Virus record (IMG/VR): IMGVR_UViG_3300045988_165705
Strand: one strand, 5' to 3'
Origin: a virus
Length of the DNA: 64,000 nt
Translations under genes and position numbers: made by a program
The notes under the pieces: model-generated
Database searches by the model: none
What the model was told of the DNA's origin: nothing
The model's input: only the letters and a program-made list of their open reading frames with translations
Part shown: positions 5,201 to 41,061 of the stretch, one piece after another
Numbering within the stretch: the stretch's first letter is position 1
How the letters are laid out: every line of letters starts with the position of its first letter

Positions 5201-5707
5201 TTAACCACCAACGGTCTCGGTCTTACCAAGCTTGATGACATAGTAGGTGTAACGACCGGCGACCTCGATATCTGCGCAGACACCAAGCCCGGTAGCAGCA
5301 GCATCAATCTTGCCACCAGTACCAATGCCGACCTTGGCGCCCTTGGTGGGAACAGTACCGCCCACAAAACCCTCTTTGGTCACGGAGAAAATGTTGCGGC
5401 TGCGGGGGATATAACCACGCACTGCTTTACCGGCCTCGTTGATATACTCATCGAGGTTCTTCTTGCGCTCATCGTACATAACCTCAACGCCAGCAACGAT
5501 AGCGCACTCATTCAGGTCATCGCTTGCGGTAGCAGCGATAGCCTTCATCACCTCGCGCTCACCGTCTTCATAGCCCCGAAGCTTGACGATGACGCCGTTT
5601 TCAACCTCGGCGGGCTGACCGTCCGCACCATAAAAGCGCAGAGAAACAAGGTCAGCAGGCTGTTTGGTACCGCTCATCAAATCGGTACGGATAACTGTAT
5701 AAGCCAT
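5201..5707 (-). CDS. hypothetical head protein (decoration/scaffold-associated?)
   Basis: 168-aa ORF between the protease/scaffold and capsid genes. Confidence 0.55.
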   Translation of the reverse strand: MAYTVIRTDLMSGTKQPADLVSLRFYGADGQPAEVENGVIVKLRGYEDGEREVMKAIAATASDDLNECAIVAGVEVMYDERKKNLDEYINEAGKAVRGYIPRSRNIFSVTKEGFVGGTVPTKGAKVGIGTGGKIDAAATGLGVCADIEVAGRYTYYVIKLGKTETVGG

Positions 5708-5731
5708 AATCGACTCCTCCTTGTTATTTAT

Positions 5732-7518: not shown

Positions 7519-9006
7519 TTATCCCCAGTCGTCAGAGTCTTCTCTGGACTGTTCCCCGGAGTCGGTCAGGCCTCCTGCATCCTTCTGCGGAGCGCCTCCC
7601 TCATCGGTTGCCGCAGTGCTTGCAGAAGAACTCTGCGTAGAAGAACTCTGCAGCGGCTTAAACCGTTCGGCAAGACCGAGCACATCATTTTCAAGAAAAC
7701 TCATGCAATCAACTTCGCTCTGAGACAACCCCTGCGATGCTGCATACATAGAAATAAAGGGAAGTCCATACTGGCACGCTTTGAGATACATATCTCCCAG
7801 TTCTTTCCTGTTAAAAGGACTGCAATCAAGGAATGTGATTTTGAAATTCTTTCCGTACCCCTGATACTGAATGAAGCGGTTGACCATATCCTCAATGCTT
7901 TTTACAATGCCAAAGGTAACCGCTTGGTCTGCCTTGATAGAAAGCAGCAACGCATTTGCGGATGCTTTATCATTGTTGAACAGGAGCGAAGATACACCCG
8001 CCGCTGTAAAGAGATTCTGTTCAGCGTCAGAGATGGTATTCGTGTCACCGGTATTGGACTTCTCAAAGCTTATCTTGTTGATAGGCATAGGGGAGAGAAC
8101 ACTGCCGATTTCCTCCGGCAGTACGGAATCCAGATTGCGCCAAAACTCTTTGGCCTTGTCCAAATCCATCTGCCATTCGCCATCCTCGTTGATACCAAGT
8201 GTCATAACAAGCATTGCATAGTTCTCAAGAGTAGTCTTGGTGAGCTTTAGCTGCTTATAATCTTCGAGGTCGTACACCTCCCGCAGAATGCCTGCGAACG
8301 GAGGAATAGCGTAGTCCAGAATATCATTGTTGCACTTGATAGCGAATGAGGTCGGGGAGTCCAGCTCCTGCCACTTCCGCTGTCTGTTCTTCTGATAGAC
8401 CTTGTACTTGGTCTGGAACTCTGTCGGATAAAACTCCAGATACTGCGAGTGACCATCAAAATAGGAAAAATCGAATGTCACATTCAGTACATTCCCCTCA
8501 ATAGTCGAGATGGCGCAGTAATCAGCCGGAAGCTGCTGGATGGTAATGCTGTCGCTTGTGACCCACAGCGTTCCGTAGAAAGTGTCCTCGCGCAGACACA
8601 CCGTCAATATCTTAGGAAACTGTGACCGCACATTCATTGCAGACATGGTATTCAAAACCTTTCTGTAGTTGCGGTTGACTGATTTCATATTGACGGTCTT
8701 AGGGTCAATGTGGTAAGGAGAGACAACATATGCAAAGTCGGAAAGGCCAGTGAAATACTGGATGAGCCTGCGGAAATGGGAACTCGCCCCATAGATATAA
8801 GTAACTGCCTTGCGAAGCTGCTTCTCATACCGGTACGGGTCGGTCAGATATGTAGAAATGTCGTCTTTCTTATATAGAGAAAATGTAGGCGCATTGGTAT
8901 TATTGTTCAAATCCCTTGTAATCAGATGATTAAGCAGGGCGAACTTTCTGGAGATACCAATCATGCCCTCCATATTGGTAGACTTGCCGTTTTCAGAATT
9001 GCTCAC
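7519..9006 (-). CDS. portal protein
   Basis: 495-aa ORF immediately downstream of TerL with an acidic C-terminal tail. The call rests on canonical position and size. Confidence 0.7.
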   Translation of the reverse strand: MSNSENGKSTNMEGMIGISRKFALLNHLITRDLNNNTNAPTFSLYKKDDISTYLTDPYRYEKQLRKAVTYIYGASSHFRRLIQYFTGLSDFAYVVSPYHIDPKTVNMKSVNRNYRKVLNTMSAMNVRSQFPKILTVCLREDTFYGTLWVTSDSITIQQLPADYCAISTIEGNVLNVTFDFSYFDGHSQYLEFYPTEFQTKYKVYQKNRQRKWQELDSPTSFAIKCNNDILDYAIPPFAGILREVYDLEDYKQLKLTKTTLENYAMLVMTLGINEDGEWQMDLDKAKEFWRNLDSVLPEEIGSVLSPMPINKISFEKSNTGDTNTISDAEQNLFTAAGVSSLLFNNDKASANALLLSIKADQAVTFGIVKSIEDMVNRFIQYQGYGKNFKITFLDCSPFNRKELGDMYLKACQYGLPFISMYAASQGLSQSEVDCMSFLENDVLGLAERFKPLQSSSTQSSSASTAATDEGGAPQKDAGGLTDSGEQSREDSDDWG

Positions 9007-9024: not shown

Positions 9025-10746
9025 CTATTTTATTTTTGGCGGCTTAAACATGAAGAAATCACTGGAGTTAAATTCTGCCGCCTTTGTGCGGATAAGCTTA
9101 CTCTCAAGCTGTGCCGCCACATAGTAGTTATAGCTAAGGCTGGAATAGCGGTCTTTCCGCATACCTGCCCGTTCAAAAATCTTTACCCGTCCACCGGACT
9201 CGTCATGCTGTAGTTTGACCAGTTCGTCAACCAACAAGGTCGTGTGGATATACGGCATCTGCAGCCTGACCTTTTCAGCGGGTGAAAGGCTGGCGTATCC
9301 TCTGATTTCAGACAGGATGTTTTCCGCCTCATACTCCGTAACGAGAAGGCGTATCTTGCCGCTTCGGAAACCCTCACGCAGCAGGACGGCACATTCGGAG
9401 TTCAGCGCAGGATTGCCCTTGATTGCCCAGATGACTTTATCTGCGCCCTTTACCGTGCATCTGTCTGCCATCTCCTGATTGTTACAACAGGACAGAGCAG
9501 GATAGATTTCACCGCTTTCCGGGTCAACCATATCTCGAACCAAAGCATCATACACGCCGAGTCCAAGCCCGGTGCAGTCCAGCACGATATAGTCACAATC
9601 GAACTCGTCGTAAAGCTTGCGGATAACCAACGCCTGGTCTTCTGTATGAAGCCCCTCTGAGGAGTCACCATAAATGATGTTGCTTGTGTATCTCCCTGAT
9701 TTGGTCGGAAGCATCTGGTTGATGAACACAGCCGTTGCGTCGTTGTTATGCTTCTTGCTGGACATCAACGCAATATCAGCAGACAAGATTCGTTTTTCAC
9801 CAAGTTGCTTTGGCTGGATTTTGATTTTGTTGTTGCCAAGGAGGACAGAAATGCGCTCCGGCAGCATGGGATATTTAATGCGCCTGTTCTTCGAGATGGA
9901 GTTGAACTCAAAGAACGAACCGTCCGTATCGCCAAACCAAAGGGCGTCCATTTCCATACTCCATTTCACTTCACTGAAGTCAGACTCTGACATCTGGTCT
10001 GCCACATCCTCTTTGAACAGAAGACCCTCTTGAATTGCCAGTTGATACGGGAATCCACACACGAAGTCTTTCCGCTTATCGTCCAGCATGAACCGGCAGT
10101 TGTCCTCAGCTTTGGTATAAGACCAATGGTCTTTGAAGTAGGCAGATGAAAGATACAGCGTCTTGTTGCGCTCCGCCAAGTGCTTATAGGCTGGATTGTT
10201 CAGATATCCGGGAAGTCTCGGGTTCGTCAGGAACTTACGGAGAATCGTGTCGATAATATCCTTGGATACCATGCGATACTCATCAATCAGCAGAATGTTG
10301 GCACGATTGCCTCGTGCATTATCACTGGCGGTAACGACCTTAATAAATGAACCGTTCTTAAATACAATCTGCGCATTGGTCGCATTTATCTTGGTCTGCT
10401 TATCGTCAATCTCATTACACAGCTCCGGCGAGCATGGCCGCAATTCTGTTTGTATCTTTTCAAGCACATTGATACTCTGACCCCGTGTGCCGGAGGCGAT
10501 GCATATCTTTGTACCGGGGTACAAGATACAACGGATACAGCAGAAGATTGCCGATAAGAATGTTTTACCCAGACCTCGACTTGCAATAAAAACAAATGTC
10601 GTGGAGACATTCATCATCACCAGCAATATCTTCTGAAAAAGATGCAAGTCCAGATGCAGGTAGTCCTTTGCAAACCGATGGGGGTTCGCTCGATAATAGG
10701 CGCACCATACGGCGGCGCCGCTCATAATGCGCTCTTGTCGTGTCAC
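9025..10746 (-). CDS. terL: terminase large subunit
   Basis: 573 aa with Walker A 'ASRGLGKT' and Walker B 'ILLIDEY'. The GTG start overlaps the upstream stop (GTGA). Confidence 0.9.
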   Translation of the reverse strand: MTRQERIMSGAAVWCAYYRANPHRFAKDYLHLDLHLFQKILLVMMNVSTTFVFIASRGLGKTFLSAIFCCIRCILYPGTKICIASGTRGQSINVLEKIQTELRPCSPELCNEIDDKQTKINATNAQIVFKNGSFIKVVTASDNARGNRANILLIDEYRMVSKDIIDTILRKFLTNPRLPGYLNNPAYKHLAERNKTLYLSSAYFKDHWSYTKAEDNCRFMLDDKRKDFVCGFPYQLAIQEGLLFKEDVADQMSESDFSEVKWSMEMDALWFGDTDGSFFEFNSISKNRRIKYPMLPERISVLLGNNKIKIQPKQLGEKRILSADIALMSSKKHNNDATAVFINQMLPTKSGRYTSNIIYGDSSEGLHTEDQALVIRKLYDEFDCDYIVLDCTGLGLGVYDALVRDMVDPESGEIYPALSCCNNQEMADRCTVKGADKVIWAIKGNPALNSECAVLLREGFRSGKIRLLVTEYEAENILSEIRGYASLSPAEKVRLQMPYIHTTLLVDELVKLQHDESGGRVKIFERAGMRKDRYSSLSYNYYVAAQLESKLIRTKAAEFNSSDFFMFKPPKIK

Positions 10747-11783
10747 TCAGCGATACTCGCTTTGTCCGAGCTGAAGATGTCGTTGAACATTGCCTCATCA
10801 TCTTCATCCTCGTATTCAGGGCGTTCAATACGCATCTTGGCAATTTCATCTTCGTACAACTTGCAGTATGTATTCTTAATGCCAAGCATTTTGCAAAGAT
10901 GTCCCAGGAACCAAATCGTGATGTAGCGAACGATTCCGTCCACATCCTTCAGCTCCGGGTCTGGTTCGGGAATAGGCTTCGTGTTTTCCCACTTCCGAAT
11001 CCACACACCGAACGGCGTCCCATCGACCGCCGCATCTGCGCCCTCTTTTTTCTGCGCAGGTTTCAAGTTCATACTGCCAAGCAGCGTATTGAGAGCGTTG
11101 ACATTCTTATCAATCGCCTTTCCCTGCGCACTATCACGACTGATTGTCGCTTCCAAAATACAAATCTGTTTATACAGAGACCGTTCACTCGGTTCCACAA
11201 CAGGAACGCCGTTTGTCCAGTCCTGATAGCGTCGCTCAAGCTCTACATAAAAATCGGATGTAAAGCCCGCCCCCCAGAAGTCAACAAGCCTCTGCTCAAC
11301 CGGTGTTTCTTCGATTTCATCCGAAGTCTGCAAATGTTCAAGACAGACGCTATTATCCGGCTGCTGACAGTTCATCGCAGTACCCTCTGCGATAGTGTCG
11401 TCAAAGGTCTTGTCAATATATCGAATCAGGTTGGTCTTTCCGATATAATTGCGAATACGGGAATTGACGCCTGCGGTGCGCTCCACCATGTTATAGATAT
11501 CTTCATTCCAATACAGGTCAAGCTTCATACACATCCGACGCATGGCCTCTTTGTCATCGCCGAGAGATGCTCTGTACTGTTCATACATATCCTCTACACA
11601 GTCGTTGCAGATAGGGAGATAGCCGGAACCGCGGTACATCAGACTGTGGCTGACAGGGAAATAACCCTTTTTGCGGCTATACGATGTGCCGCATCTGCAG
11701 CAGTAAAACTTCTGAGAGGTTTGGAGAGTCATTGAGTCATCTGTGGTCTTTTCAAGTTTTCTGCGTCTCGGGGTGTCTGCCAT
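10743..11783 (-). CDS. small terminase subunit candidate / DNA-recognition protein with N-terminal Cys4 motif
   Basis: 346-aa ORF directly upstream of and overlapping terL. Contains 'CCRCG...PICNDC'. Identity rests on position only. Confidence 0.45.
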   Translation of the reverse strand: MADTPRRRKLEKTTDDSMTLQTSQKFYCCRCGTSYSRKKGYFPVSHSLMYRGSGYLPICNDCVEDMYEQYRASLGDDKEAMRRMCMKLDLYWNEDIYNMVERTAGVNSRIRNYIGKTNLIRYIDKTFDDTIAEGTAMNCQQPDNSVCLEHLQTSDEIEETPVEQRLVDFWGAGFTSDFYVELERRYQDWTNGVPVVEPSERSLYKQICILEATISRDSAQGKAIDKNVNALNTLLGSMNLKPAQKKEGADAAVDGTPFGVWIRKWENTKPIPEPDPELKDVDGIVRYITIWFLGHLCKMLGIKNTYCKLYEDEIAKMRIERPEYEDEDDEAMFNDIFSSDKASIAE

Positions 11784-12095
11784 TTACATCCGCCCCCTTT
11801 TATGATTTCCCTCCCACAGCTTAACGGCCATACGCATTTTGTTGCCAGGGTAAAAGCGGGGAATCCAGTGCGCAGGGACATCGACCTTCTCCCCGGTCTG
11901 TGGGTTCGGACAGCTTCGCGCCTTGCGTTCCAAAATATCGAAACAACCGAAGTTGTGAATTGAAATTGTATTGCCCTCTTCGAGATTTTCCAAAATAAGA
12001 TTGGTAAAATCATCAACAATGCTTGTGGCGGCCTTCTTCGTGTAGCCATGCCTGTCCACAAGCTGCTGGATTAAATCGACCCTTTTAATATCCAT
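11784..12095 (-). CDS. HU/IHF-family DNA-binding protein
   Basis: 103 aa. 'GYTKKAATSIVDDF...FGCFDILERKARSCPNPQTGEKVDVPAHWIPRF' matches the HU/IHF arm signature. RBS AAGGAAGG. Confidence 0.85.
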   Translation of the reverse strand: MDIKRVDLIQQLVDRHGYTKKAATSIVDDFTNLILENLEEGNTISIHNFGCFDILERKARSCPNPQTGEKVDVPAHWIPRFYPGNKMRMAVKLWEGNHKRGRM

Positions 12096-12112: not shown

Positions 12113-13144
12113 TTACAGGTCTGACAGTGACTTCTGTGCGTCAGACCGAATATCACCATTCTCGTCAAAGTACTGCGAAATCTGTTCCTCTGCGCTCAGG
12201 TCTTTATAAACGCGAACCATGTCAGCAGATTCCCACCCGATGATGTCTTGAATGATATTGTCTGGCAAACCGAGCTTGGAAAGGTGCGTTGTAAAGTAAT
12301 GCCGCAGACTGTGCCAGTAAAAATCTTCACCTGTCATCCTGCTAAAGGTGTTCGCCCAGCTGTTGAGCGTTGTCTCACTCATTTGTTCACTTGTCGTTCC
12401 AGCAGGAAACAGCCACTCACTTTCAATACCAAGTTCCGTCCGTTCACGCATCCATGCATCAAAATATGGTTTGAACTTTTTTGCCAGCGTGTAGCAGTAA
12501 ATGTATTTGCCCAGGCCGAACCCTTTTGTCTGAATCGGTTCACTGGTCTTGTACAACGCCCCGCCGCATACAAGGTTGTCATTTTTGAAATCGTCAACCC
12601 GGAATCGGCAAAGCTCTGCCTTGCGTCGCCCACTGCACATAGCGAGAGCCACGGCACAGGCCTTTTTGTTTTGCCCGGAAGCAAGCAGGTCATCAAGCAG
12701 CTTGTCCAGCGCTTCGTCGCTCCACACCGTTTTCTTTCGCACCTGCTGCATAGCTGGGTTCTCTATCTTCCTTACGGTAGAACGGAACCCCTTAAACTCG
12801 TCTTCATCATCCAAGATGTTCTCCACATAGTTGGAGAGCGAAGAAATTGCAGACTTCAAACGCCGCACACGAGCGGGAGAATTACCGTTCTCATTGATGA
12901 GCCAATGCTGATATGCGGCATAGTCGCGCTTGGAGATTTTCGGGAAAAACTTGTTCCCGTTGTTCTGCAAGTTCCAAACCCAGAAAATATCAAGGTCATT
13001 TGCGTAGCCCGCAATCGTCTTCGGACTGCGCTGCACAGACTGCAGATAAGCAATAAAATCCTGCTTTAGCCGGATGTTTTCCGGGTTGACCTGACTTAAA
13101 AGCTCAGGGCTTGTGATTTCGTTTTGCTTTGTTTTTCGGGGCAT
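12113..13144 (-). CDS. tyrosine recombinase / phage integrase
   Basis: 'WHSLRHYFTTHL' (HxxR) and 'GWESADMVRVYKD' (catalytic Tyr). Start moved to ATG 13144 (GAGGTGG RBS) because the ORF-track start at 13189 overlaps the tRNA. Confidence 0.85.
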   Translation of the reverse strand: MPRKTKQNEITSPELLSQVNPENIRLKQDFIAYLQSVQRSPKTIAGYANDLDIFWVWNLQNNGNKFFPKISKRDYAAYQHWLINENGNSPARVRRLKSAISSLSNYVENILDDEDEFKGFRSTVRKIENPAMQQVRKKTVWSDEALDKLLDDLLASGQNKKACAVALAMCSGRRKAELCRFRVDDFKNDNLVCGGALYKTSEPIQTKGFGLGKYIYCYTLAKKFKPYFDAWMRERTELGIESEWLFPAGTTSEQMSETTLNSWANTFSRMTGEDFYWHSLRHYFTTHLSKLGLPDNIIQDIIGWESADMVRVYKDLSAEEQISQYFDENGDIRSDAQKSLSDL

Positions 13145-13176
13145 ACAAGCCACCTCGCTTTCTGTAGAATTAAAAC

Positions 13177-13251
13177 TGGTTGCGGGCACCGGAGTTGAAC
13201 CGATTCCTCAAGGTTTATGAGACCTGCGACTTAACCGCTTGTCCTGCCCGC
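13177..13251 (-). tRNA. tRNA-Met or Ile2 (CAT)
   Basis: The reverse complement folds as a cloverleaf with acceptor GCGGGCA/TGCCCGC, anticodon loop CTCATAA, T-loop TTCAACT and an encoded CCA. One mismatch in the anticodon stem. Confidence 0.75.
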
Positions 13252-13255
13252 AATA

Positions 13256-13341
13256 TGGTGGGAGAGGTTGGATTTGAACCAACGCAGCCCGAAGGCGGCA
13301 GATTTACAGTCTGCTGTAATTGACCGCTCTACCACTCTCCC
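13256..13341 (-). tRNA. tRNA-Tyr (GTA), long variable arm
   Basis: Acceptor GGGAGAG/CTCTCCC, anticodon arm GCAGA-CTGTAAA-TCTGC, T arm GTTGG-TTCAAAT-CCAAC, CCA encoded. Confidence 0.85.
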
Positions 13342-13347
13342 AAAGTA

Positions 13348-13423
13348 TGGTGAGGTCGGAGGGAATCGAACCCATCGTTACCGCCGTGAAAGGGCGGTGT
13401 CTTAGCCGCTTGACCACGACCCC
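13348..13423 (-). tRNA. tRNA-Glu (TTC)
   Basis: Acceptor GGGGTCG/CGACCTC, anticodon arm CCGCC-CTTTCAC-GGCGG, CCA encoded. The T stem has only 3 clean pairs. Confidence 0.7.
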
Positions 13424-13474
13424 GTGTAAAAAACTTATATTCTGCGTCAAAGCGAATGCGGCGGGGTGGAGGGG

Positions 13475-13786
13475 TTAGACGCAGAAGCCGAAAGCGACGC
13501 CACAACTGAAGCTGGCGAAGCAACGGCTGGCGGAGCCGGAGCTGTAGACACAACAGAAAAAACCGCTGTCGCCAGAATAAGGAGAACGCTCCCACCAGTC
13601 GTTAGCGGAGCCACCTTTGTTCTTTACCTTCGAGTTGCCCGCCTTGTAATAGGCGTACTGCGTTCCTTCGCCGGAGACGGAGTAGGTGTGCCGAAGCCCA
13701 ACAAAATCAGAAGAGGGCTGCCCATCACGGACAGCCCTCGCGGGTTGTTTATTGAAGAGGAACGCTGTAAGAGCAACGGACTCCAT
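13475..13786 (-). pseudogene. truncated C-terminal copy of the DUF6273-like gene at 32160..32819
   Basis: The last ~85 codons (...WWERSPYSGDSGFFCCVYSSG...CGVAFGFCV) parallel the C-terminus of 32160..32819. No SD precedes the candidate ATGs (13786/13792). Overlaps the 3' end of the upstream gene in another frame. Confidence 0.4.
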
Positions 13787-14915
13787 CTGCATCGCAGACG
13801 CATACCATCTGTTCCGCTTTCCCATAGATTCGCTTCTGCACGCAGTAGTCGTCCATACCGAGAAAGCTTCCTGCCATAATGGTTTTAACGCCCTGCACTT
13901 CATCCATTTTGTTATGATGCAAGTGCCCGGACAACACAGCGTACAGCGGGGTTCTTGCCATTGTCTGCAATGCCTGCACTTTGCTGGCGGAACCATCAAA
14001 ATCTCCGTGGACGCCACAGTATGTCTTGCCACGGATATTGATAAGATACATGGTGCTGTCGATTTTGACGGAGCTTCCTTCCGCTGCACCGATAGTTACA
14101 TTCTCAAAGTTTTGTAATCGTGCGCCGAGATACCACTCGACCAAGTCATCTAAACGCTCGCTGAGCAAAGCGTCATCCTTGTTTGGCGTAATGCGGCTGT
14201 GATTACCCGCCACACTAACAAACACCACAGACTTGAAATGCTTGCTCAGTTCGGCAATAAACTCTGCAATCAATTCTGAAACGCCCTTGATTTGCTCAAT
14301 CACATTTTCTTTGTTGGTGATGGCAATAGACTGATGAATGTTCCCGCTGATAGCGTCGCCATTTGACCAGACGATACAGTTCTCACTGCCATGAGTCTCA
14401 CCAATAGCGATGACCTTATCCAGATACCGGCACATCATCTCTCGGCACACATTTGAGTTGTATGTATTCCAATGGTTGTCCACATCCGCGCCATAGTGAA
14501 TATCATTGAGGCTGACCAACAGGTCGTTGTCAGACGGCTCGATGTGGCACGGCTCATAGGCAAGGCGAGGTAAATTTCCGTTCCTGACTGCCTCCACAAG
14601 AATCTCGTTAAGTTCCTCCTGTCGGGAACGCTCACGAATCAGTTTGTTGAATGCATTTCTCTGGTCAAAGAACTTCTGCCGCTCCTTAAGCAGTTCAATG
14701 CGTCTGGCCTCCAATGCAGATAACTGCTCTTCGTCGCATACGGCAGCCTCGCCATCACGCTCGATAGCTTCGATGATAGTACGCATCCCGTACATCCGCT
14801 TCCGGACTTCACTGGAGTTGAAGCAGTTGCCCTCACCAAACAGACGCTCACTCAAGTCCTCGTACTCATCGTCTATGGTGTGGTCAACCAACTTTCCCAT
14901 AACGATGTCGCGCAT
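13749..14915 (-). CDS. calcineurin-like metallophosphoesterase with N-terminal coiled-coil region
   Basis: Motifs 'LNDIHYG', 'NGDAISGNIH', 'VAGNHSR', 'GVHGD' and 'SGHLHH'. Confidence 0.8.
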   Translation of the reverse strand: MRDIVMGKLVDHTIDDEYEDLSERLFGEGNCFNSSEVRKRMYGMRTIIEAIERDGEAAVCDEEQLSALEARRIELLKERQKFFDQRNAFNKLIRERSRQEELNEILVEAVRNGNLPRLAYEPCHIEPSDNDLLVSLNDIHYGADVDNHWNTYNSNVCREMMCRYLDKVIAIGETHGSENCIVWSNGDAISGNIHQSIAITNKENVIEQIKGVSELIAEFIAELSKHFKSVVFVSVAGNHSRITPNKDDALLSERLDDLVEWYLGARLQNFENVTIGAAEGSSVKIDSTMYLINIRGKTYCGVHGDFDGSASKVQALQTMARTPLYAVLSGHLHHNKMDEVQGVKTIMAGSFLGMDDYCVQKRIYGKAEQMVCVCDADGVRCSYSVPLQ

Positions 14916-14948: not shown

Positions 14949-15137
14949 TTACACTCCCTTTCGCTTGTCACGAGGACGCTCCTGCCCGCGCAGACTGCGC
15001 AGCAGCCGCATGGGTGCGCCTTCTTCGACCATATAATAATGATGCCGTTTCGAGTCGCTCTTCATCGTGCGCACAATGTGAACACGGGGGAACTTCTCAC
15101 AAATGGCCTCTTTTTCAGATAAAGTAATTGCAATCAC
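14949..15137 (-). CDS. small hypothetical protein
   Basis: 62-aa ORF on the same strand and in the same operon-like run. Confidence 0.5.
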   Translation of the reverse strand: MIAITLSEKEAICEKFPRVHIVRTMKSDSKRHHYYMVEEGAPMRLLRSLRGQERPRDKRKGV

Positions 15138-15268: not shown

Positions 15269-16036
15269 TCAGTTTTTCAAAGCCTGTCTTCGGCGCATTA
15301 CTGAATTAACAATCTGCCTTGTGTGCAGCTCTACGGCACAGTTGGGGCAATACTTCTGCGGGCGGCCTTTAGCGGGTTCCTGCATCTTCACAGTCAGGCC
15401 GCAGTTCTCGCACTCAAAGTACTGCCCGCCATAATGCTTCATGTACTGAAAGCCGAGATTGCGAAAGTCCTGAATATGTATCGCTGTCTTACCGTTTTCC
15501 ATAAAACATACCTGTACATTTAGGTTGTCAATCTTTTTGGAAAACCGAATAAAGCCAGCACTGCGCAGCTCTGCGAACATCAAACTCTGCCGCTTGATAG
15601 AGGTATTGATATTCGCCATCTGCATAACCTCCTTGTCAGAACTGTTGACCCAATGGTTATTCTTGTCGGATGCAGCATCCCAGTACTTTGCAACGCACAA
15701 CAGAGTAAACGCCAATCGCCGGAGCTGCTTACCCTCAAGCGTCTCAATCTTTCGCAGCTCGTTCTCAGTGATGTCAACTCCGTCCAGCCGAATCAATGGA
15801 AACTTGGCCGCATTCTTTGTCAGCTTGTCCAGAATGTCCGACCACTGGACAAGTGAGACGGACGGGTCGCACTGCAGCATAAAGGAGTCGAGCAACCGTC
15901 GAATCTCCTTTTTGCTGTACTGGTTCTCATAGTAATATCTCGAAATGCGGCTAAGGGTCTCCACGGGCTTTGGGCCGAGGTCATGGTTGTTCAGCATTCT
16001 CTCCGCCCAGTCATATTCGTTAAGAACAATGCTCAT
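15269..16036 (-). CDS. hypothetical protein with C-terminal zinc ribbon
   Basis: 255 aa. 'CENCG...CPNC' near the C-terminus. Its start overlaps the end of the upstream RNAP-like gene. Confidence 0.65.
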   Translation of the reverse strand: MSIVLNEYDWAERMLNNHDLGPKPVETLSRISRYYYENQYSKKEIRRLLDSFMLQCDPSVSLVQWSDILDKLTKNAAKFPLIRLDGVDITENELRKIETLEGKQLRRLAFTLLCVAKYWDAASDKNNHWVNSSDKEVMQMANINTSIKRQSLMFAELRSAGFIRFSKKIDNLNVQVCFMENGKTAIHIQDFRNLGFQYMKHYGGQYFECENCGLTVKMQEPAKGRPQKYCPNCAVELHTRQIVNSVMRRRQALKN

Positions 16037-18560
16037 TGAATTCCTCCAGTCTCTTTTGTTTCAGGGTAAAGCGGTTCCCGCAAAACACGATTTCTCCGGC
16101 GGGGTCAATGGTCGGATAGGAAATCAATCCGTCATGTTTGTTCAGCAGATTGCGGATGATTTCATTTCCGCACATCTCCCATGCAAACCGCTTGGTCGAG
16201 CTCTTCCGGTAGCAAATGTCCAATACGATGTCGCACAAGGCGAACCGATTGGAGCATACCTTGCTGCACTCCTGCTCGAACTCCGTGCGCATCTCCATCA
16301 TTTTGGAGAAGGTGTCGTACTCGTCTACTCGTTCGTAGTTCGCAAACACAGCATAGCTGCGCAGCCGGTGGTTATAATTCTCATACAGCTTCAGAATTGC
16401 GTTATACTGTGAGCGGGTATAAGCGGCGCCACTTTTCATGACGGTGTAGTCAAACTCTGTCTCTGCACTGTGCCGTCCGAGATACCCGTCAAACTCCTGC
16501 TCAAAACGACGGCATATTCTGTTCATCACGCAATTGTGATTGCCAACCGGCATCCGGGACTCGTAATAGCGGAGGAAATCCTTCTGCCGGTCACTCAGTT
16601 CCGCAGGCGGCAGCTCCAGCAATTCGTCCACCGTCATTTGGAATTCCCGCATGGCGGTCTTGTTGGTGTTCTTTATGTATGTATTGTACTGCTTCATCAG
16701 TGTAGGGTAGATAATGCGCATGAAGTACGGCTTCTTGTCTGCTACGATTTTCTGATAAAAGCGTCGCTTGGCTGGGTCTTCAATGGTGTTGACGCTGTGG
16801 CGGTCATGCCACTCTCTCGGCATGGGCTTGGCAATAATTCCTTTGGCCTTGTCAATGGCGTTCTGCTGGAATAGCTGTCCGCACTTGATGCGATAATCAA
16901 GCGCCTCGTATTCCTTGCTGCCCTTTTTGAACTGCGCCCGCACATCAAACATGGAGGTAATCCAGTTCGTTGTCTTCCCGATATCGTCACCAAAGCTGTC
17001 GATGTTCGCCTGAATGAAGTCCGCTTCGGTGACGATTTTCTTTTTGGCATTACGCTGCACGCACATCAGCGCAGGAAGTTCCTTCAGGTTGCGGACGAGA
17101 ACATCGTTGTCGGTCAACATCACAAGGTCGCCATCTTTATCCATACCATTCAGAGCATGGGCAGCAGTATCCCACGAATTGAAGATAGTGCAGGTCGTCA
17201 TATACTGATACCAGTAGGCTGCCGCTTCGCTATGATTCGGATATACCAGCCGAATGTTATTGTGGCAGGTCATTGGTGCTCGATAGCAAGCCAACTTCTG
17301 TGTGCCCTGTCGGCACCAGTGCTGGTTATAGATTTCACCGGCTTTCAGCAGCCCCGTCACCGGCATGGCAAAAATGTGCTGGCAGAGAGAATAGGGGTCG
17401 CCGGACACAATGGAATAATTCCCGTGTACCTTCAACACGCCAACCTTAGCCTCGTTGATGCGGTTCTTTATCATCTGGTAGACGCTGCTCTGCACATAGG
17501 GGTCGTTGAGAATATGGGGCTCAATCATCAGCGCCTTTATGAAGTCGTTTTCCATGCAGCCGACATTCTCTTCGTTCAGTCCCGCACCTTTGAGAAACAG
17601 AACAGTCTTTACCCAATCGGCGTACAGCACATCCTTTATCTCATCCATTGTCGGCTTGATAAGCTGCTCCATATCTGCGTCATCCAACTCATAGCTCTGA
17701 ATGAATTGGTAATTCAGAGTTCTTTCACTTTCCAGTTCTCTTGGGCAGGTCTTTGCAACGCCGAAGGTATAGCCGTTCCTGAGACAGTTCTGCACATAGT
17801 CATCGCAGCTATCATAGGCATCCCACAGCTTCAACATGGATGTTGTCAGTATCAGTTCCACATTCCGCACATCCACATCGTTACCCCATGCGTCTTTGAC
17901 AATGTAAGTTCCGGCGACATTCTTGGCAAAGTCCAAAAAGTCAAAGGTGAATACCATGCCCTTCTCCCATGAGAATCTGGTGTTCACTCCGCTGACAAGA
18001 TAGTCAAGCTCAAGCTCCTCTGACCACCGCCTTGCCAAAGACGGCAGCATCAAACCGTACCCGTCCGACTCTTTAAGTTGTACGGTCGCTTGCTTACGCT
18101 CCTCCATCACAGGTTCTCCGTCGCCCTCATCGTTCAGGTAAATGATATCGGATAGGAACTCCGTCTCACAGTCGCTCACTACCAGAATGCCGTGCGGCAT
18201 GGACACCGGGATAGATGCGCTACAGGTCAATGCGTTGTAGGCTTCCAACTTGGCGGGAACCATCGCCTTTTCCATATTGCGGCCATTGTTGATGCGCCTG
18301 CGGATTTCATCTGCGTGCCGTTCGCTGACAAAGACAATCGTCTCATTCTTGACGCCGCCGTTTGTCCCCAAGAGCCGTTGATACTTGATGCCGTTAATGC
18401 TGAAACCACGGCAGGCACGGTGATAGTCTTTCTCTTTGTCGATGATAACGCACAGATAATCCGGCTTGAATTGGATGGTGTCCAGTTGTGCATAAAGCTG
18501 CTTGATACGGCGGCGGTTCTGCACGCTGTTCTGCTCTTTGCGTAGCCGTCGAATCTCCAT
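16020..18560 (-). CDS. YonO-like / RdRP-like single-subunit two-barrel RNA polymerase (candidate)
   Basis: 846 aa. 'ALNGMDKDGDLVMLTD' fits the DxDGD catalytic loop, preceded by 'YRAPMTCHNNIRLV'. Size is close to SPbeta YonO. The frame is open for a further 70 codons upstream. Confidence 0.55.
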   Translation of the reverse strand: MEIRRLRKEQNSVQNRRRIKQLYAQLDTIQFKPDYLCVIIDKEKDYHRACRGFSINGIKYQRLLGTNGGVKNETIVFVSERHADEIRRRINNGRNMEKAMVPAKLEAYNALTCSASIPVSMPHGILVVSDCETEFLSDIIYLNDEGDGEPVMEERKQATVQLKESDGYGLMLPSLARRWSEELELDYLVSGVNTRFSWEKGMVFTFDFLDFAKNVAGTYIVKDAWGNDVDVRNVELILTTSMLKLWDAYDSCDDYVQNCLRNGYTFGVAKTCPRELESERTLNYQFIQSYELDDADMEQLIKPTMDEIKDVLYADWVKTVLFLKGAGLNEENVGCMENDFIKALMIEPHILNDPYVQSSVYQMIKNRINEAKVGVLKVHGNYSIVSGDPYSLCQHIFAMPVTGLLKAGEIYNQHWCRQGTQKLACYRAPMTCHNNIRLVYPNHSEAAAYWYQYMTTCTIFNSWDTAAHALNGMDKDGDLVMLTDNDVLVRNLKELPALMCVQRNAKKKIVTEADFIQANIDSFGDDIGKTTNWITSMFDVRAQFKKGSKEYEALDYRIKCGQLFQQNAIDKAKGIIAKPMPREWHDRHSVNTIEDPAKRRFYQKIVADKKPYFMRIIYPTLMKQYNTYIKNTNKTAMREFQMTVDELLELPPAELSDRQKDFLRYYESRMPVGNHNCVMNRICRRFEQEFDGYLGRHSAETEFDYTVMKSGAAYTRSQYNAILKLYENYNHRLRSYAVFANYERVDEYDTFSKMMEMRTEFEQECSKVCSNRFALCDIVLDICYRKSSTKRFAWEMCGNEIIRNLLNKHDGLISYPTIDPAGEIVFCGNRFTLKQKRLEEFNEHCS

Positions 18561-18826
18561 CTTGATTTCCTTTGCTCTGGCCTCGGCATCGGTAATCCCG
18601 TTCAGCTCATCCAGCCAGCGCAGTACCTGGCTGTCTGCAAGCGAAATAACCTCATCGTTCCGCCTCGCTTCCGCTATGGGCAGCGTTAGCTTCCACTTGG
18701 CCTTTCGCAGTCTGCTGCTATGCAGTTTGAAGATATACTTCTGACATACTAACTGTTTTGCCAGACTCGCTCACCTCACAGTTGTATTTTATTTAATTGC
18801 TATGATATAAGAAAAATAATACAGCC

Positions 18827-19000
18827 TTACTCATAATCTTCGGCTGTGTATTGGAACCACTCTCGGTAAAAGCGCATCCTCTCACGCTCTATGTGTCGTT
18901 CCAGTTCCGCATCGTTTTCAAGCGGATTTTCAAAAATCTCCTCACACTTGAGCCGCAGCTCATCGGAGTCTTCATATGTATAGGGGTAATTATTCTGCAA
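18827..19000 (-). CDS. small acidic hypothetical protein (57 aa, TTG start)
   Basis: Not in the ORF track. GGAGG lies 8 nt before TTG 19000. Translated by hand: LQNNYPYTYEDSDELRLKCEEIFENPLENDAELERHIERERMRFYREWFQYTAEDYE. Confidence 0.4.
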   Translation of the reverse strand: MQNNYPYTYEDSDELRLKCEEIFENPLENDAELERHIERERMRFYREWFQYTAEDYE

Positions 19001-20207
19001 TCGTCTTTCCTCCGTTCGTCGTGTCTATCCAATTCATGAGCAGCTCTCTCATGCGCTTGCTCGGTATGTATAGGTTGATAGGGCGGTCATCACGAATGGC
19101 ACTTCTCCATATCCACTGCAACATCTCGGATAGTGCGAATTCATCCGCATCGATAGTGATGTTCTGGGCATGGAAGAACTTCATGATGTTGGGGTCGGCA
19201 AACCGATTGACCATGTAGGCCACATCAGTGCGGTCTTTATACTCGTTGGTTGCTCTGGCGCTGGTCTGCAGAAAGTTCTTACGGAACCTTCCGGTCTTGC
19301 TGTCTACCAGCTTGTTCACATCGCTCTTGTAGCAAGTCCATAGCCGGGTCTCCTGCCCTCCGCCCGGAATGCTTTGAAAGAACTTCTTCATGCCGTTTCG
19401 CAGCGTGCGAATCTCAGCGTTGTTATACCCCCGTTTGTCGTACCATGACTTGGACAGGGTATAAGTCTTGTCCCCAACAGCATTGAGTTTCGGGCTGTCC
19501 ACAATATGTATCAGGTCGTGGTAATCCAGGGGCGGCGGTTCATCCGGCCTGTCAGAGAATCGATAGCCATTGGCGTCGCTCTCCACACCAACTACTCTGT
19601 AGTCAAACCCGAAATAATCCAGATAGGCTTTCTGGTACTGCCCATTGAAAAGGTAGGTCAGCATGAATACCTCGTCAAATGAGCGAAGTAGTTCTGGGTT
19701 GAGAATGTTCAGCAGCGCATTGTCCAGCCGGAATAGTGAGCGGGTGTTTGCCATCTCCTTGTAATCGCTGAACCGCCCGGTGTACTCCTCATCTTTCCAC
19801 TGGATGCATCCGTCTTCTAAAACTTCAGCGAGTTGGGTTACAATCAGGTCGAAGTCCTTATCGGTGATGTTCAGCCTCTCTATTACCTGAATGCTTTCAT
19901 CTACGATAAGAGAATAGTGCTTCTCTCGAATTAGCTTCAGCGCCTCGTCATCCATCAGATAAAACAGTGAATGCGTTGCGGAGACATTGTGCCCAAGACG
20001 AAGGTGGAGCTTCAACTCAGATGACTTGCTCATGTGGTCACTGTCCGGCTGGTCAAAGTCGCAGCGTTCGCAGATACGCCCGACCTCGTCCAGATATGGG
20101 GTGATGTACAAAAACCGCTTGTTGTCCTTGTGCCGGTTCATGTAACGAATAGCTGCCGACGATTTACCTCTGCCCATACGGGCGTCAACAATAGTTATCT
20201 GGTTCAT
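18990..20207 (-). CDS. SF2 helicase-like P-loop NTPase
   Basis: Walker A 'ARMGRGKSS', DExx 'LIVDES', 'TSARATN', 'QWIWRSAIRD'. Confidence 0.65.
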   Translation of the reverse strand: MNQITIVDARMGRGKSSAAIRYMNRHKDNKRFLYITPYLDEVGRICERCDFDQPDSDHMSKSSELKLHLRLGHNVSATHSLFYLMDDEALKLIREKHYSLIVDESIQVIERLNITDKDFDLIVTQLAEVLEDGCIQWKDEEYTGRFSDYKEMANTRSLFRLDNALLNILNPELLRSFDEVFMLTYLFNGQYQKAYLDYFGFDYRVVGVESDANGYRFSDRPDEPPPLDYHDLIHIVDSPKLNAVGDKTYTLSKSWYDKRGYNNAEIRTLRNGMKKFFQSIPGGGQETRLWTCYKSDVNKLVDSKTGRFRKNFLQTSARATNEYKDRTDVAYMVNRFADPNIMKFFHAQNITIDADEFALSEMLQWIWRSAIRDDRPINLYIPSKRMRELLMNWIDTTNGGKTIAE

Positions 20208-21322: not shown

Positions 21323-21777
21323 CGTAGCTCTCCTTTCTCAATCAAAATGTAGTCTATTTAATTATCTTGATTATACCGATATTATACCACATTTCTTTAT
21401 GGAATGTAAGTATAATTAGTAGACAACATAGGGAAAACAGTGAAAAACAAAAGCATAAATAACAGGCGGCGTAGTTAAGCCCTTTTCTCTTTTGGACAAG
21501 TTGAATCCTCCTCACAAGCATCCACGCAAAGGGCTTAACCAACAATGTTCCTCTGGACATTCTTTGCCGAGAAAGCAAGTAAAATCAAGGCGTGTGGGGA
21601 TTGCAGTAAAAAGTGATGGTTTGGGTCAGATGAACCGACTACATCTGTTTGCGCTGTCGGCGGGGGCTGAAAAGACCATAACCACCCCCCTACTTGCCAT
21701 AGCACCGAAAAGGCAAGTAGACACCACGGCGGCAACGGCGGCACGACAGGCGGCAGGCAGGGCGGGGACGGTTGCGG

Positions 21778-21805
21778 CAGGGTACACCCCTTGCGGCTAT
21801 GGGTG
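21778..21805 (+). repeat. solitary partial copy of the 58-bp repeat core
   Basis: cagggtacaccccttgcggCTATgggtg versus cagggtacaccccttgcggTTAAgggtg in the tandem array. It ends 17 nt before the -35 box. Confidence 0.7.
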
Positions 21806-21822
21806 TATGTCAAAAAATTGTG

Positions 21823-21931: not shown

Positions 21932-22921
21932 ATGAACACGAACACGAAAGCAACCGCACAGGCGAAAGCCAACACCACCACCGCAAGCGCATTTGAAACC
22001 GTCAAACGCAACTATGAAACCGCCCTTGCACAAGGCAAGGACACCGCACAGGAATTGACCGCCCTTGCAACCGCCGTTGCATACTCTGTCATCAATAAGT
22101 GCATTGACCCACGGCGCAAGACCGCCGCACAGCGGGACACCGCAAGCAACACCGGATTTAATCCCGCTATGGTAACACTGAAAAGAGGGATTGCCGCTGA
22201 CCTTGCCACGCTGGACAACACCCGCCGCAACGCCAACGCCGCAACCGCCACAACCTACAACGCCGACGGCGATTTAGTGACCGTCACGGCGGACAAGGAC
22301 GCCGCCGCCGCCCTTGTTGACCTTATGGCAACCACCCTTTCGGACGGAATAGACCTTGTTCAAACCGCCGCCCTTGCCATTTTGGAACAAGCCGCCGAAC
22401 ACGCCAACGGCGAAAGTTGGCTTGACAGCAAGTACACCGTTCGCCGCCTGTCCCGCCGTGTCTATATCCGTTCGGATGAAAGTGCCGCATATAGGGACGA
22501 TGAAACAACCCCCATTCAAGAGGTTTATAGAGCCGTTCGGCAAGCCGTCCAAAATTCCCGCGCCGTCCAGACTGACCCCCGCAACGGGTACAGCTACATA
22601 GAGGACATGACAGCGGACGGACTGGACACTATCTATTATCGCATGGGCAAGTACACCGATTTAGGCGGGTACGATTGCAACGGCAACTATACCACCGACA
22701 GACAAGCCGCCGCCGACTATGAAACGCTTGTTGCAAGTCTGAACTTGACCGACAGACAAGCGCAGATACTCCGCTTGCGTATGCAAGGCAAGGGGTACAA
22801 GGCAATAGCAACCTATTTAGGCGTAACGCAAAGGGCGATTGCAAAGACCGTGGGACAGATACAGACGAAAGCCACGGCGGCGGGACTGACCCCGCACGGA
22901 CTGACCACCGCACAGGACTAA
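21932..22921 (+). CDS. sigma-70-family (ECF-like) sigma factor / HTH regulator candidate
   Basis: The C-terminal 'LTDRQAQILRLRMQGKGYKAIATYLGVTQRAIAKTVGQIQ' is a region-4/LuxR-type HTH. 'DGIDLVQTAALAILEQA' resembles region 2. Start set at MNTNTK. Visibly GC-richer codons (GCC/ACC/CGC). Confidence 0.5.
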   Translation: MNTNTKATAQAKANTTTASAFETVKRNYETALAQGKDTAQELTALATAVAYSVINKCIDPRRKTAAQRDTASNTGFNPAMVTLKRGIAADLATLDNTRRNANAATATTYNADGDLVTVTADKDAAAALVDLMATTLSDGIDLVQTAALAILEQAAEHANGESWLDSKYTVRRLSRRVYIRSDESAAYRDDETTPIQEVYRAVRQAVQNSRAVQTDPRNGYSYIEDMTADGLDTIYYRMGKYTDLGGYDCNGNYTTDRQAAADYETLVASLNLTDRQAQILRLRMQGKGYKAIATYLGVTQRAIAKTVGQIQTKATAAGLTPHGLTTAQD

Positions 22922-23006: not shown

Positions 23007-23189
23007 CCCGCCGCCCCGCCGCACACAGGGTACACCCCTTGCGGTTAAGGGTGCAGGGCAAGACCCCGCCGCCCCGCCGCACACAGGGTACACCCCTTGC
23101 GGTTAAGGGTGCAGGGCAAGACCCCGCCGCCCCGCCGCACACAGGGTACACCCCTTGCGGTTAAGGGTGCAGGGCAAGACCCCGCCGCC
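23007..23189 (+). repeat. tandem direct repeat, 58-bp unit, 3 full copies plus 9 nt
   Basis: Period 58 (cacacaggg at 23022, 23080 and 23138). The copies are identical by eye. Each unit contains the hairpin CACCCCTT-gcggt-TAAGGGTG. Confidence 0.9.
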
Positions 23190-23199
23190 GAAAGGCGGT

Positions 23200-23996
23200 C
23201 ACGCTAAGACAGCCCTATGGCTAATCCTGAGTATTCAGGCAACCTTGCCACTGTCCGAGTGGGTGGAAACCCACTAAAACCTCTAATCGGTTTAGCACCG
23301 GTTTTGAGGGGAACACCGGTGCAATCTGAGTTTGAGGCGGATTGCGATATTGATTATACAAGTTCCCCTGCCTAATGCAGCCTTTGGCGGTCACAAGCCC
23401 GCATGAGAAATGCAGAGTGGGTATTGTCAGAGGAATATAAGCGGAGATGTCCGCCACTTCCATGACAGGCAATACAAGTTGCGGTACTGTTCCCAGACAA
23501 CTATAAAAATCAGGGCACTTGTAATCCGCAAGGATAAATAATGGATGGTAGTCCGACTGAGGGACTATAAAGCGCAGTTTACCCGATAAATTCGGGCGTC
23601 GCCGGTGCATGAGAGTTAGGCTCATGGTACGAGATAGTGAAAATCCCCGGAGGTTTGCGCCTATGAACCTAAGTGCGGCTTGCATAACTGATGGCTATAC
23701 AAGAACGACTTTTGAAAGTAAGTAGTATCGTCCGAGTTTTCTACCCAAGGGTATTGTGCTCCGAGGAGCCGAAAGCAAGGGCATATAGATATGAAAGCCG
23801 AATTTGGTCAAGTATTGCGAATTGAACAGAACAGTCCCCGATAGAAATGAGTATCGGAAATGGTGCGTGTTCCGTTCGATACTGCAACGGCTGTGGGGCA
23901 AAATATACCCCATGCGCCGAAATGCAGAGCCGGAACCATTTCAAATATCGGGTTTATCATTGATAGAGCCGCCGAGGGTTTTTCTTCGGCGGTTTC
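23200..23996 (+). ncRNA. large ORF-free, hairpin-dense RNA candidate (GOLLD/ROOL-class?)
   Basis: About 0.8 kb with no credible ORF on either strand. At least 10 local hairpins, e.g. gtgggt/acccac, gcaccggt/accggtgc, gcgga/tccgc, tagtcc/ggacta, cccga/tcggg, catgag/ctcatg, ccgata/tatcgg. Ends in a terminator-like hairpin at 23969-23996. Phage context with tRNA islands. Confidence 0.35.
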
Positions 23997-25743: not shown

Positions 25744-26002
25744 GGCTGGCACGGTACGATTCCGTGGAGTGGTTTCCCACTTAACGCTTAGTCCTTGTAT
25801 TAGTGAAGGTAAGTGAGGGGGCACCCAAAATTCTGAAAGCTTTACAAGGCGTTGGGGACTACGAAAGTGTCCAAGTGTTATGGAAATGCTGCCATGACCA
25901 CGGGATATGATTAAGAAAGTGCATCCTTGGAAGTTGGAGTATTACGGCTATAGCCGTCGGGTGAAACTTCCTCCCGTTATCAACAATGGAAGGGAGCTTA
26001 TC

Positions 26003-38177: not shown

Positions 38178-38204
38178 ACGACTATGAAAAGGAGGCATAG
38201 GGCG

Positions 38205-40679: not shown

Positions 40680-41061
40680 ACGCTACAAATTACAGACAGG
40701 ATGCCGACCTCTCAAATGGCGGAGACCGATGCGCTGTAAGGTCATGCGGGGTGCAAATCCCCGCCATCTGCGCTACCGGCATGGCATTGCCGTGGGAAGG
40801 ACATAATGTTTCTCCAGAATTATGCCGGTGTGCCGACACATAGAAAGCGGCTGGGCAATGCGGAGCCTGTAGAGACAAAATCCGTAGAATATTGAAGCGG
40901 CAGGCGTTCCGTCATGCGTTTACCGTGGAGTTCCAAAGGGTTGTGCGTATTCCTCAAGGCGGATAGGTGAGAGCCAAAAGAAAACGCACTGCAGATACAG
41001 ACCTGCGTTACCAAAGGTGTCGCGCTGGCAGACCGCAAGTTCGCAATAGTCTGCCACTTAT

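Follow-up and report, generated by a model that had tools for sequence, protein, structure and literature searches.

To our knowledge, no bacterial or phage member of the branch of two-barrel RNA polymerases that resembles RNA-dependent RNA polymerases (RdRPs) has been characterised apart from YonO of the Bacillus subtilis prophage SPbeta. YonO, a processive DNA-dependent RNA polymerase, is needed to express 37 late SPbeta genes, which form one operon with a start site downstream of yonN, and it has been considered as a model of the single-chain form from which all cellular RNA polymerases would descend (PMC5467207). Its promoter, and initiation factors if it uses any, have yet to be identified (PMC5467207). 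Here we analyse a related gene on the minus strand of the IMG/VR virus record IMGVR_UViG_3300045988_165705, a DNA stretch of 64,000 nucleotides (nt; hereafter the window), in which a preliminary description made from the letters alone had proposed a YonO-like polymerase. As judged from sequence comparison and structure prediction, the product is a single-chain RNA polymerase of the YonO family with two double-psi beta-barrels (DPBBs), and it joins the phage branch of a family that also includes the eukaryotic RdRPs of RNA interference (RNAi). With family membership, active-site conservation, fold, synteny and linkage to a partner gene established, we consider it highly probable that this polymerase of an SPbeta-like phage transcribes phage DNA, likely the late genes, together with its partner; DNA as the template, specificity for late genes and the function of the partner are suggested by homology, active-site conservation and synteny. 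The kind of enzyme was already known, and the value of the locus lies in a two-gene architecture that holds across the family.

The open reading frame (ORF) of 846 amino acids (aa) that starts at the first ATG is present where it had been proposed, and so are the motifs that had drawn attention to it: GMDKDGDLVML occupies residues 472–482 and RAPMTCHNNI residues 427–436, with R427 placed 47 residues ahead of D474 where a gap of about 50 had been given. The length is, as claimed, near the 839 aa of YonO, although 846 aa holds for the ORF from the first ATG and the real coding sequence probably has 914 aa (see below). Against the Pfam RdRP profile PF05183 (gathering threshold 23.8 bits) the protein scores 53.4 bits (E 2.4e-14), residues 46–539 matching profile positions 59–506 of 582. 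BLASTP aligns its residues 51–539 with YonO over 506 columns (7e-32, 25% identity) and pairs its DKDGD with DNDGD of YonO. A tblastn search of 50,697 phage records (2.3 Gb) gave matches in 38 of them, including full-length homologues of ~42% identity in Clostridium phage c-st and the Enterocloster phages, a homologue of 29% identity in Bacillus phage BUCT082 and YonO itself (25%, E 2e-25). This is a very large family: when 1.84 billion cluster representatives (clusters at 50% identity) were searched exhaustively with HMMER, 1741 relatives passed E<=1e-3 and 560 passed E<=1e-30. A single lineage accounts for thousands of nearly identical copies in public metagenomes, and gut samples contributed many of these. 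Since a PDB search with the single sequence yielded nothing relevant, the family profile was needed to reach plant RDR (7W82, 3.4e-5), RDR2 (7EU0) and QDE-1 (2J7N).

Conservation was evaluated in an alignment of 97 sequences, i.e., the window protein and 96 homologues of 26–54% identity. Residues K104, Y108, D166, G167, K200, G201, R427, P429, D474, D476 and D478, among others, are invariant, and R195 is conserved in at least 90% of the sequences. Eight residues are invariant in all two-barrel RNA polymerases, in QDE-1 four Asp, two Arg, one Lys and one Pro (PMC2919709). Their QDE-1 positions D709/R738/K743/R962/P964/D1007/D1009/D1011 (PMC2919709) correspond to D166/R195/K200/R427/P429/D474/D476/D478 of the window enzyme, R195 being the only one of the eight that is not invariant in the alignment, and the spacings are 29/5/2/47 vs. 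29/5/2/45 in QDE-1. In the family-profile alignments, the segment from D166 to G201 (DGYGL...RFSWEKG) matches sDGxG...R...KG of plant RDR and QDE-1, and the DKDGD loop matches DLDGD of plant RDR. The Asp triad is essential in YonO, in which the 3D>3N mutant is inactive (PMC5467207). In our reading, the active site lies between two barrels, of which the first contributes D166, R195 and K200, and the second R427 and P429 along with the Mg-binding triad D474/D476/D478.

The AlphaFold2 model built on this alignment has a mean predicted local distance difference test (pLDDT) of 94.7 and a predicted template modelling (TM) score of 0.90. Its beta-rich blocks at residues 125–205 and 377–500 carry both motif sets, and in the model two DPBB domains appear to form the catalytic cleft. 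All 21 Foldseek matches in the PDB at E<=1e-3 are RDR2 or QDE-1 (E 2e-18 to 8e-15, probability 1.00, ~700–960 aligned columns, TM 0.42–0.53), and bacterial beta' ranks after them (E ~1e-2, TM ~0.1). This level of similarity to beta', together with the location of both barrels on one chain, led us to reject a multisubunit beta/beta' type. The two outcomes that had been named as grounds for dropping the proposal, a prediction without barrels and homologues without the Asp residues, were not found: the matches to RDR2 and QDE-1 extend over the full length, and all three Asp are invariant, as are R427 and P429, which supports a polymerase. The idea that the motifs arose by chance, or survive in a relic that has lost activity and serves a structural or other purpose, can practically be discarded. 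DxDGD is expected 0.012 times per protein of this composition and length, the catalytic residues are conserved across the alignment, the gene is under strong purifying selection and the confident model is polymerase-like; conservation, model and Foldseek matches effectively refute it already.

Among predicted viral structures, the best Foldseek matches are phage 'RdRP' proteins (1.4e-38), and those to P23-45 A7XX94 (5e-6) and to crAss-like phage proteins (7e-5 to 1e-2) are far weaker. The polymerases of P23-45 and crAss-like phages use phage-specific promoters and are either fused to a tape-measure or ejection protein or are early or pre-early enzymes. The single-chain two-barrel core of P23-45 gp64/gp96 (PMC10770324) and crAss-like phi14:2 gp66 is common to the window enzyme, but homology between these polymerases and the window polymerase was not detected at the sequence level. 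The weak structural likeness, along with the position of the gene within a few kb of the left genome end in PMBT24, TR-TP1, BUCT082 and CB45x phages, could indicate a polymerase that is packaged in the virion or acts very early, like crAss-like gp66, N4 vRNAP and P23-45 gp96, rather than a late-gene enzyme. We regard this as very improbable, because a sigma-70-type promoter precedes the gene, which implies host-dependent expression, and because the 846- or 914-aa product is a free-standing protein of ~100 kDa without ejection or tape-measure fusion domains. Furthermore, neither gp66 nor gp96 is among the top PDB matches, and YonO is a late-acting enzyme rather than a virion one (PMC5467207).

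The catalytic core of the window polymerase is homologous to YonO and collinear with it up to a C-terminal W..G..i..N helix, including the Asp triad and the R.P strand. Beyond this point the architectures differ: YonO continues into its own C-terminal CxxC...KYCxxC Zn ribbon, whereas the window polymerase ends in a beta-hairpin without any C-terminal CxxC...CxxC, and the homologous ribbon resides on a separate 255-aa protein. The window enzyme is thus not the all-in-one polypeptide that YonO is but a split variant of the same architecture, which leaves its membership in the catalytic family unaffected. The start of the partner gene overlaps the polymerase stop by 17 nt. The AlphaFold model of the partner (pLDDT 90.5) comprises a helical N-domain, a winged-helix-like middle, a Zn ribbon (CxxC...CxxC, C209/C212/C230/C233, window 15338–15412) and a basic C-terminal helix.

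This two-gene arrangement is the usual one in the family. In five diverse phages the gene directly 3' of the polymerase encodes a product of 209–278 aa that is homologous over its whole length at 19–30% identity. A survey that included 80 IMG/VR loci (polymerases 45–99% identical to that of the window) and four isolated phages placed the partner gene at −19 to +6 nt from the polymerase stop in 84 of 85 loci, with one exception. SPbeta and Perkons have no partner gene, and their polymerases instead finish in a CxxC...KYCxxC Zn ribbon. The partner-family profile matches only the SPbeta and Perkons polymerases, and hhalign aligns the partner family with the YonO/Perkons C-termini over 61 columns spanning the Zn ribbon and flanking helices (96.3% probability, E 1.5e-9). 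Only one of 103 full-length polymerase representatives (P0226, 1173 aa, found on five contigs from several samples) carries a C-terminal Zn ribbon, and it is a head-to-tail fusion of the polymerase with a complete partner (74 bits, residues 920–1169). The homologues of c-st (CST179/178/177), the Enterocloster phages PMBT24 and CB45x, BUCT082 and Thomasclavelia phage TR-TP1 (22–42% identity, full length) are likewise polymerases with a downstream partner, followed by HU and packaging genes, although the TR-TP1 partner, unlike that of the window, has no Zn ribbon. Conserved adjacency, translational coupling, natural fusion and the complementary distribution of ribbon and partner gene make a physical or functional partnership with the polymerase likely.

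As to what the partner does, we hypothesise a role in DNA or promoter recognition. A Foldseek search with its model returned no significant match, and the weak ones came almost exclusively from winged-helix DNA-binding proteins (Fur/Zur, ArsR, plasmid Rep, ORC). Homology to TFIIB, TFE or sigma factors was considered and rejected, as sequence profiles gave nothing beyond generic zinc-finger matches, and the winged-helix matches by structure were not significant. Tentatively, and with somewhat less than even confidence, YonO-type polymerases may as a rule be two-component enzymes in which the partner is a subunit or initiation factor for DNA or promoter recognition, comparable to TFE/TFIIE or sigma without being homologous to them; the YonO ribbon would be a fused remnant, and the repeated element ATCANNNNAATTAAATANANNACA (see below) a possible target. 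The two-gene architecture therefore offers a concrete, testable candidate for the specificity or initiation factor of YonO-type enzymes, and the Zn-ribbon tail of YonO gains interest as a functional element. Separately, a 445-aa protein (P0286) on a single 2.6-kb contig combines 99% of the partner, at 81% identity, with Fpg/Nei glycosylase Pfam domains, which could reflect a chimera of the assembly or a genuine fusion.

The surroundings of the gene (Table 1) are those of an SPbeta-type phage. After the operon terminator, the same strand carries three transfer RNA (tRNA) genes, the second recombinase gene, HU and packaging and head genes, including YonG-like, YonD-like and further head genes. 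The terminase, portal, YonG, YonD, HU, YonJ and YonV homologues in the window place the polymerase gene at the head of the packaging and structural block. Gene order parallels SPbeta yonP-yonO-yonN(HU)-...-yonK-yonJ(exonuclease)-...-yonG-yonF(terminase)-yonE(portal), and polymerase, HU, YonJ exonuclease, YonG, terminase and portal are syntenic with SPbeta, BUCT082, PMBT24, TR-TP1, Perkons and c-st. Contigs with an identical polymerase cluster at ~118 kb, and related prophage or phage contigs were mostly binned with metagenome-assembled genomes of Oscillospiraceae, Acutalibacteraceae or other Clostridia; the source is probably an SPbeta-like phage of ~118 kb with a gut Oscillospiraceae host. 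Relative to YonO, the window enzyme is distinguished by the ribbon on a separate coupled protein, by the exonuclease gene inside the polymerase operon and, probably, by a non-canonical CUG start.

From these observations we propose the following sequence of events. The host polymerase would read the leftward operon, which consists of the recombinase-like gene, the YonV-like NTPase, a 57-aa ORF, the polymerase, the Zn-ribbon partner, a 62-aa ORF and the YonJ-like exonuclease, from the sigma-70-type promoter near 21400 to the strong terminator, and the polymerase would most likely be translated from a weak CUG codon. To judge by homology with YonO and the conserved gene order, the enzyme would then transcribe phage DNA independently of the host polymerase, most likely the packaging and head genes that lie downstream on the same strand, and it would probably act together with the translationally coupled 255-aa winged-helix/Zn-ribbon protein.

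Several points weigh against this proposal, the first of which concerns the template. The template preference of the window subfamily, only 25% identical to YonO, is not readable from sequence, and QDE-1 uses RNA as well as DNA templates. The nearest solved structures, QDE-1 (2J7N, 7Y7P-T) and RDR2 (7W82, 7EU0, 7ROZ), have the same fold and the same eight active-site residues, and the Pfam family is named 'RdRP'. Considering also the combined RdRP and DNA-dependent activity of QDE-1 (PMC9508822), and the several structured RNAs and the RNA-repair module of this phage, one could envisage an enzyme that amplifies or primes on RNA (e.g., the structured RNAs) or makes primers for replication. Such a role appears unlikely, however, since YonO, the characterised phage homologue, is DNA-dependent and needed for late genes (PMC5467207), since the conserved place of the gene at the head of the packaging/head module in many double-stranded DNA phages fits a transcriptase, and since no RNAi-like partners are present. 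QDE-1 and RDR2 are moreover only ~15% identical to the window enzyme; they are cellular and make double-stranded RNA for silencing, whereas the phage enzyme lacks their N-terminal domains and stands in the late-gene setting of a double-stranded DNA phage. We prefer the annotation DNA-directed RNA polymerase (YonO family) to 'RNA-dependent RNA polymerase', a name that some of the homologues in isolated phages already bear, while those of c-st are annotated as YonO homologues.

The remaining objections to transcription of the late genes by the window enzyme concern gene order and promoters. The order is unlike that of SPbeta in that the exonuclease gene lies within the polymerase operon and a recombinase gene and tRNA genes precede the late genes. 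No promoter recognised by the polymerase was found. The stretch at 13403–13760, where a late promoter was sought between the end of the operon and the late genes, is conserved only in ~98%-identical relatives, beyond which just the tRNAs persist, and it contains no convincing sigma-70 site. The sole repeated element has three copies, stands upstream of the polymerase's own operon and would suit an operator equally. Finally, the sigma-like factor (21932–22921) could drive the late genes through the host polymerase instead. The PYonO region of SPbeta, located via the published primers (primer extension) at L001 11910–12153, has no counterpart in the window.

The repeated element, ATCANNNNAATTAAATANANNACA, is 24 nt long and occurs in three exact copies in the window, all on the minus strand, vs. 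0.22 expected. The copy at the polymerase gene directly precedes the Shine-Dalgarno sequence, and this copy and that at the recombinase-like gene begin 9 nt past extended −10-like hexamers. Both are kept in position in relatives that are at least 80% identical, with variation at the N positions, and near-complete related genomes also contain about three copies. No counterpart was found near yonP or yonO in SPbeta. A genome-wide late promoter was rejected, as there are three copies only and many unrelated AT-rich matches elsewhere. In SPbeta, the recombinase-fold master repressor MrpR binds the yonP-yonO promoter at the SPBRE element (PMC10516654), which makes an operator role of the 24-nt element as plausible as that of a phage promoter; it may also be a leader element. 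By analogy with MrpR, the 275-aa recombinase-like protein could be a regulator. It has no N-terminal core-binding domain, and R...HxxR...H...Y is apparently kept in the translation as read by eye, unaligned. A DUF3800-VIII RNA motif (Rfam RF03075) lies in the long SPbeta leader downstream of the mapped YonO start (L001 13009–13074) and in the equivalent region of BUCT082 (L004 8632–8697), and the window has no counterpart.

The true coding sequence very likely spans 16020–18764 and starts at a near-cognate CUG codon, to judge from the 68 codons upstream of the first ATG, which are open, conserved in the family and under purifying selection. They encode the conserved family N-terminus LAKQLVCQKYIFKLHSSRLRKAKW...DSQVLRWLDELNG, including the segment ...NDEVISLADSQVLRWLDELNG that is conserved family-wide, and codon differences from nine relatives amount to 24–41 synonymous vs. 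4–18 non-synonymous changes (41 vs. 6 for L036). No ATG, GTG or TTG occurs anywhere in this extension. The TGA of its Shine-Dalgarno sequence GAGGTGA is an in-frame stop, and the GAGG core ends 9 nt ahead of the CTG. At the homologous position, relatives carry CTG, ATA, ATC, ATT or TTG, all one-base variants of ATG, and ATG itself is found there only in distant relatives (M[A/S]KQ...). A near-cognate start suggests deliberately low translation. Owing to these codons, gene starts are mis-called in the window clade, and gene callers shorten the protein to 846, 864 or 867 aa.

Table 1 Coordinates of the polymerase gene, its active-site segments and other features; positions refer to the window unless another locus is named.
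Feature	Position	Strand	Basis or remark
24-nt element, third copy	5722–5745	minus	15 nt 5' of head-block gene 5201–5707
Portal	7519–9006	minus	head/packaging block
Terminase	9025–10746	minus	head/packaging block
HU	11784–12095	minus	between second recombinase gene and packaging/head genes
Tyrosine recombinase gene	12113–13189	minus	second one flanking the polymerase operon
Intrinsic terminator	13713–13739	minus	12-bp stem and T-run; closes the polymerase operon just ahead of tRNA/packaging/head genes
YonJ-like metallophosphoesterase/exonuclease	13749–14915	minus	last operon gene; phrog_284 'exonuclease' 2.4e-56; Metallophos_2; SPbeta yonJ counterpart
62-aa ORF	14949–15137	minus	ORF list; between Zn-ribbon gene and exonuclease
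Partner protein, 255 aa	15269–16036	minus	adjacency, fusion, hhalign, AlphaFold
RNA polymerase ORF, from first ATG	16020–18560	minus	ORF list, Pfam, YonO homology, AlphaFold, Foldseek
GMDKDGDLVML, catalytic Asp triad, second barrel	17115–17147	minus	invariant; aligned to plant RDR
RAPMTCHNNI strand (R427, P429), ahead of metal loop	17253–17282	minus	invariant residues
First-barrel active-site segment D166–G201 (D166, R195, K200)	17958–18065	minus	conservation and RDR/QDE-1 alignment
Probable N-terminal extension, 68 codons	18561–18764	minus	open frame, conservation, codon changes; CTG start 18764–18762
Shine-Dalgarno GAGGTGA	18771–18777	minus	sequence; kept in nearly all clade relatives
24-nt element ATCATAGCAATTAAATAAAATACA, before polymerase gene	18783–18806	minus	9 nt 3' of −10-like TGTATTAT (18816–18823)
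57-aa ORF	18827–19000	minus	ORF list; between NTPase and polymerase
YonV-like P-loop NTPase	18990–20207	minus	35% identity to SPbeta YonV; PF27199 YonV_C
Tyrosine-recombinase-like gene, 275 aa	20495–21322	minus	first gene of leftward block
24-nt element, before recombinase-like gene	21348–21371	minus	9 nt after the −10 of the operon promoter
Probable host-type promoter CTTACA-18-TGGTATAAT	21345–21415 (promoter 21410–21381)	minus	sigma-70-type, ahead of the first gene of the leftward block
RAGATH-16	23582–23652	plus	Rfam, above gathering score
RAGATH-4	23829–23963	plus	Rfam, above gathering score
RAGATH-36	25747–25875	plus	Rfam, above gathering score
Radical-SAM protein	29297–30109	plus	
Reverse transcriptase	38184–39341	plus	
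drum RNA	40887–40992	plus	Rfam, above gathering score
RtcB	42879–44084	plus	RNA-repair set
DNA ligase	44081–45373	plus	RNA-repair set
RNA ligase	47677–48762	plus	RNA-repair set
Thg1-like guanylyltransferase	57856–58650	plus	RNA-repair set
Two nucleotidyltransferases	61298–63662	plus	RNA-repair set
Inserts in homologous polymerase genes, ~300 nt	L111 4431–4709; L112 4367–4700; L109 4694–4997; L003 (c-st) 10465–10781		

The neighbours named in the preliminary description, an NTPase, a Zn-ribbon protein and a phosphoesterase, are indeed encoded on the same strand, but the label 'SF2-like' for the NTPase was not confirmed, and the protein has no Pfam helicase match. In 54 of 59 related loci the NTPase gene precedes the polymerase gene, and it is dissimilar to the gene upstream of the BUCT082 polymerase. 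As a polymerase-specific partner it was rejected, because it occurs also in many YonO-less phages, namely of Acinetobacter, Vibrio and Aeromonas. The 57-aa ORF was likewise set aside as a YonP homologue, its similarity to SPbeta YonP being undetectable. On the other side of the operon, the 118,462-bp scaffold L008, which carries an identical polymerase, stops ~310 nt past the exonuclease gene (~13440) and just before the tRNA cluster, which could mark a terminus of the genome or a break in the assembly. The stretch at 13475–13792, which is variable among relatives, contains a weak DUF6273-like ORF fragment.

In c-st and several metagenomic relatives, the polymerase gene, intact in the window, is interrupted either right within the codons for DxDGD or ahead of the invariant D570 in the IDKAK motif, at sites that map to window codons 474–476 (~17133–17141) and 569/570 (~16851–16856). 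Beside the inserts of ~300 nt (Table 1), those in L106 and L107 measure ~1.1 kb. Three metagenomic inserts align with the whole of the group I intron model of Rfam at E 2.7e-8 to 3.2e-5, below the gathering score, and Rfam detected no group I intron in the c-st interruption. Due to the interruptions, many database proteins of the family end at 474–478 or 566–574 or begin at 481.

Further features lie on the plus strand. The RAGATH and drum RNAs are the 'structured RNAs' to which the preliminary description had alluded. Three perfect, GC-rich tandem repeats of 58 nt with the core CAGGGTACACCCCTTGCGGTTAAGGGTGCAGGGCAA are located at 23007–23189 (+), where they directly follow the terminator of the sigma-like gene and precede the RAGATH RNAs, and a related copy at 21778–21813 (+) is directly 5' of the sigma-70-type promoter of the sigma-like gene. 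The window also contains at least 13 tRNA genes and an RNA-repair/tRNA-maturation set (28353–63662 (+); 13180–13423 (−)).

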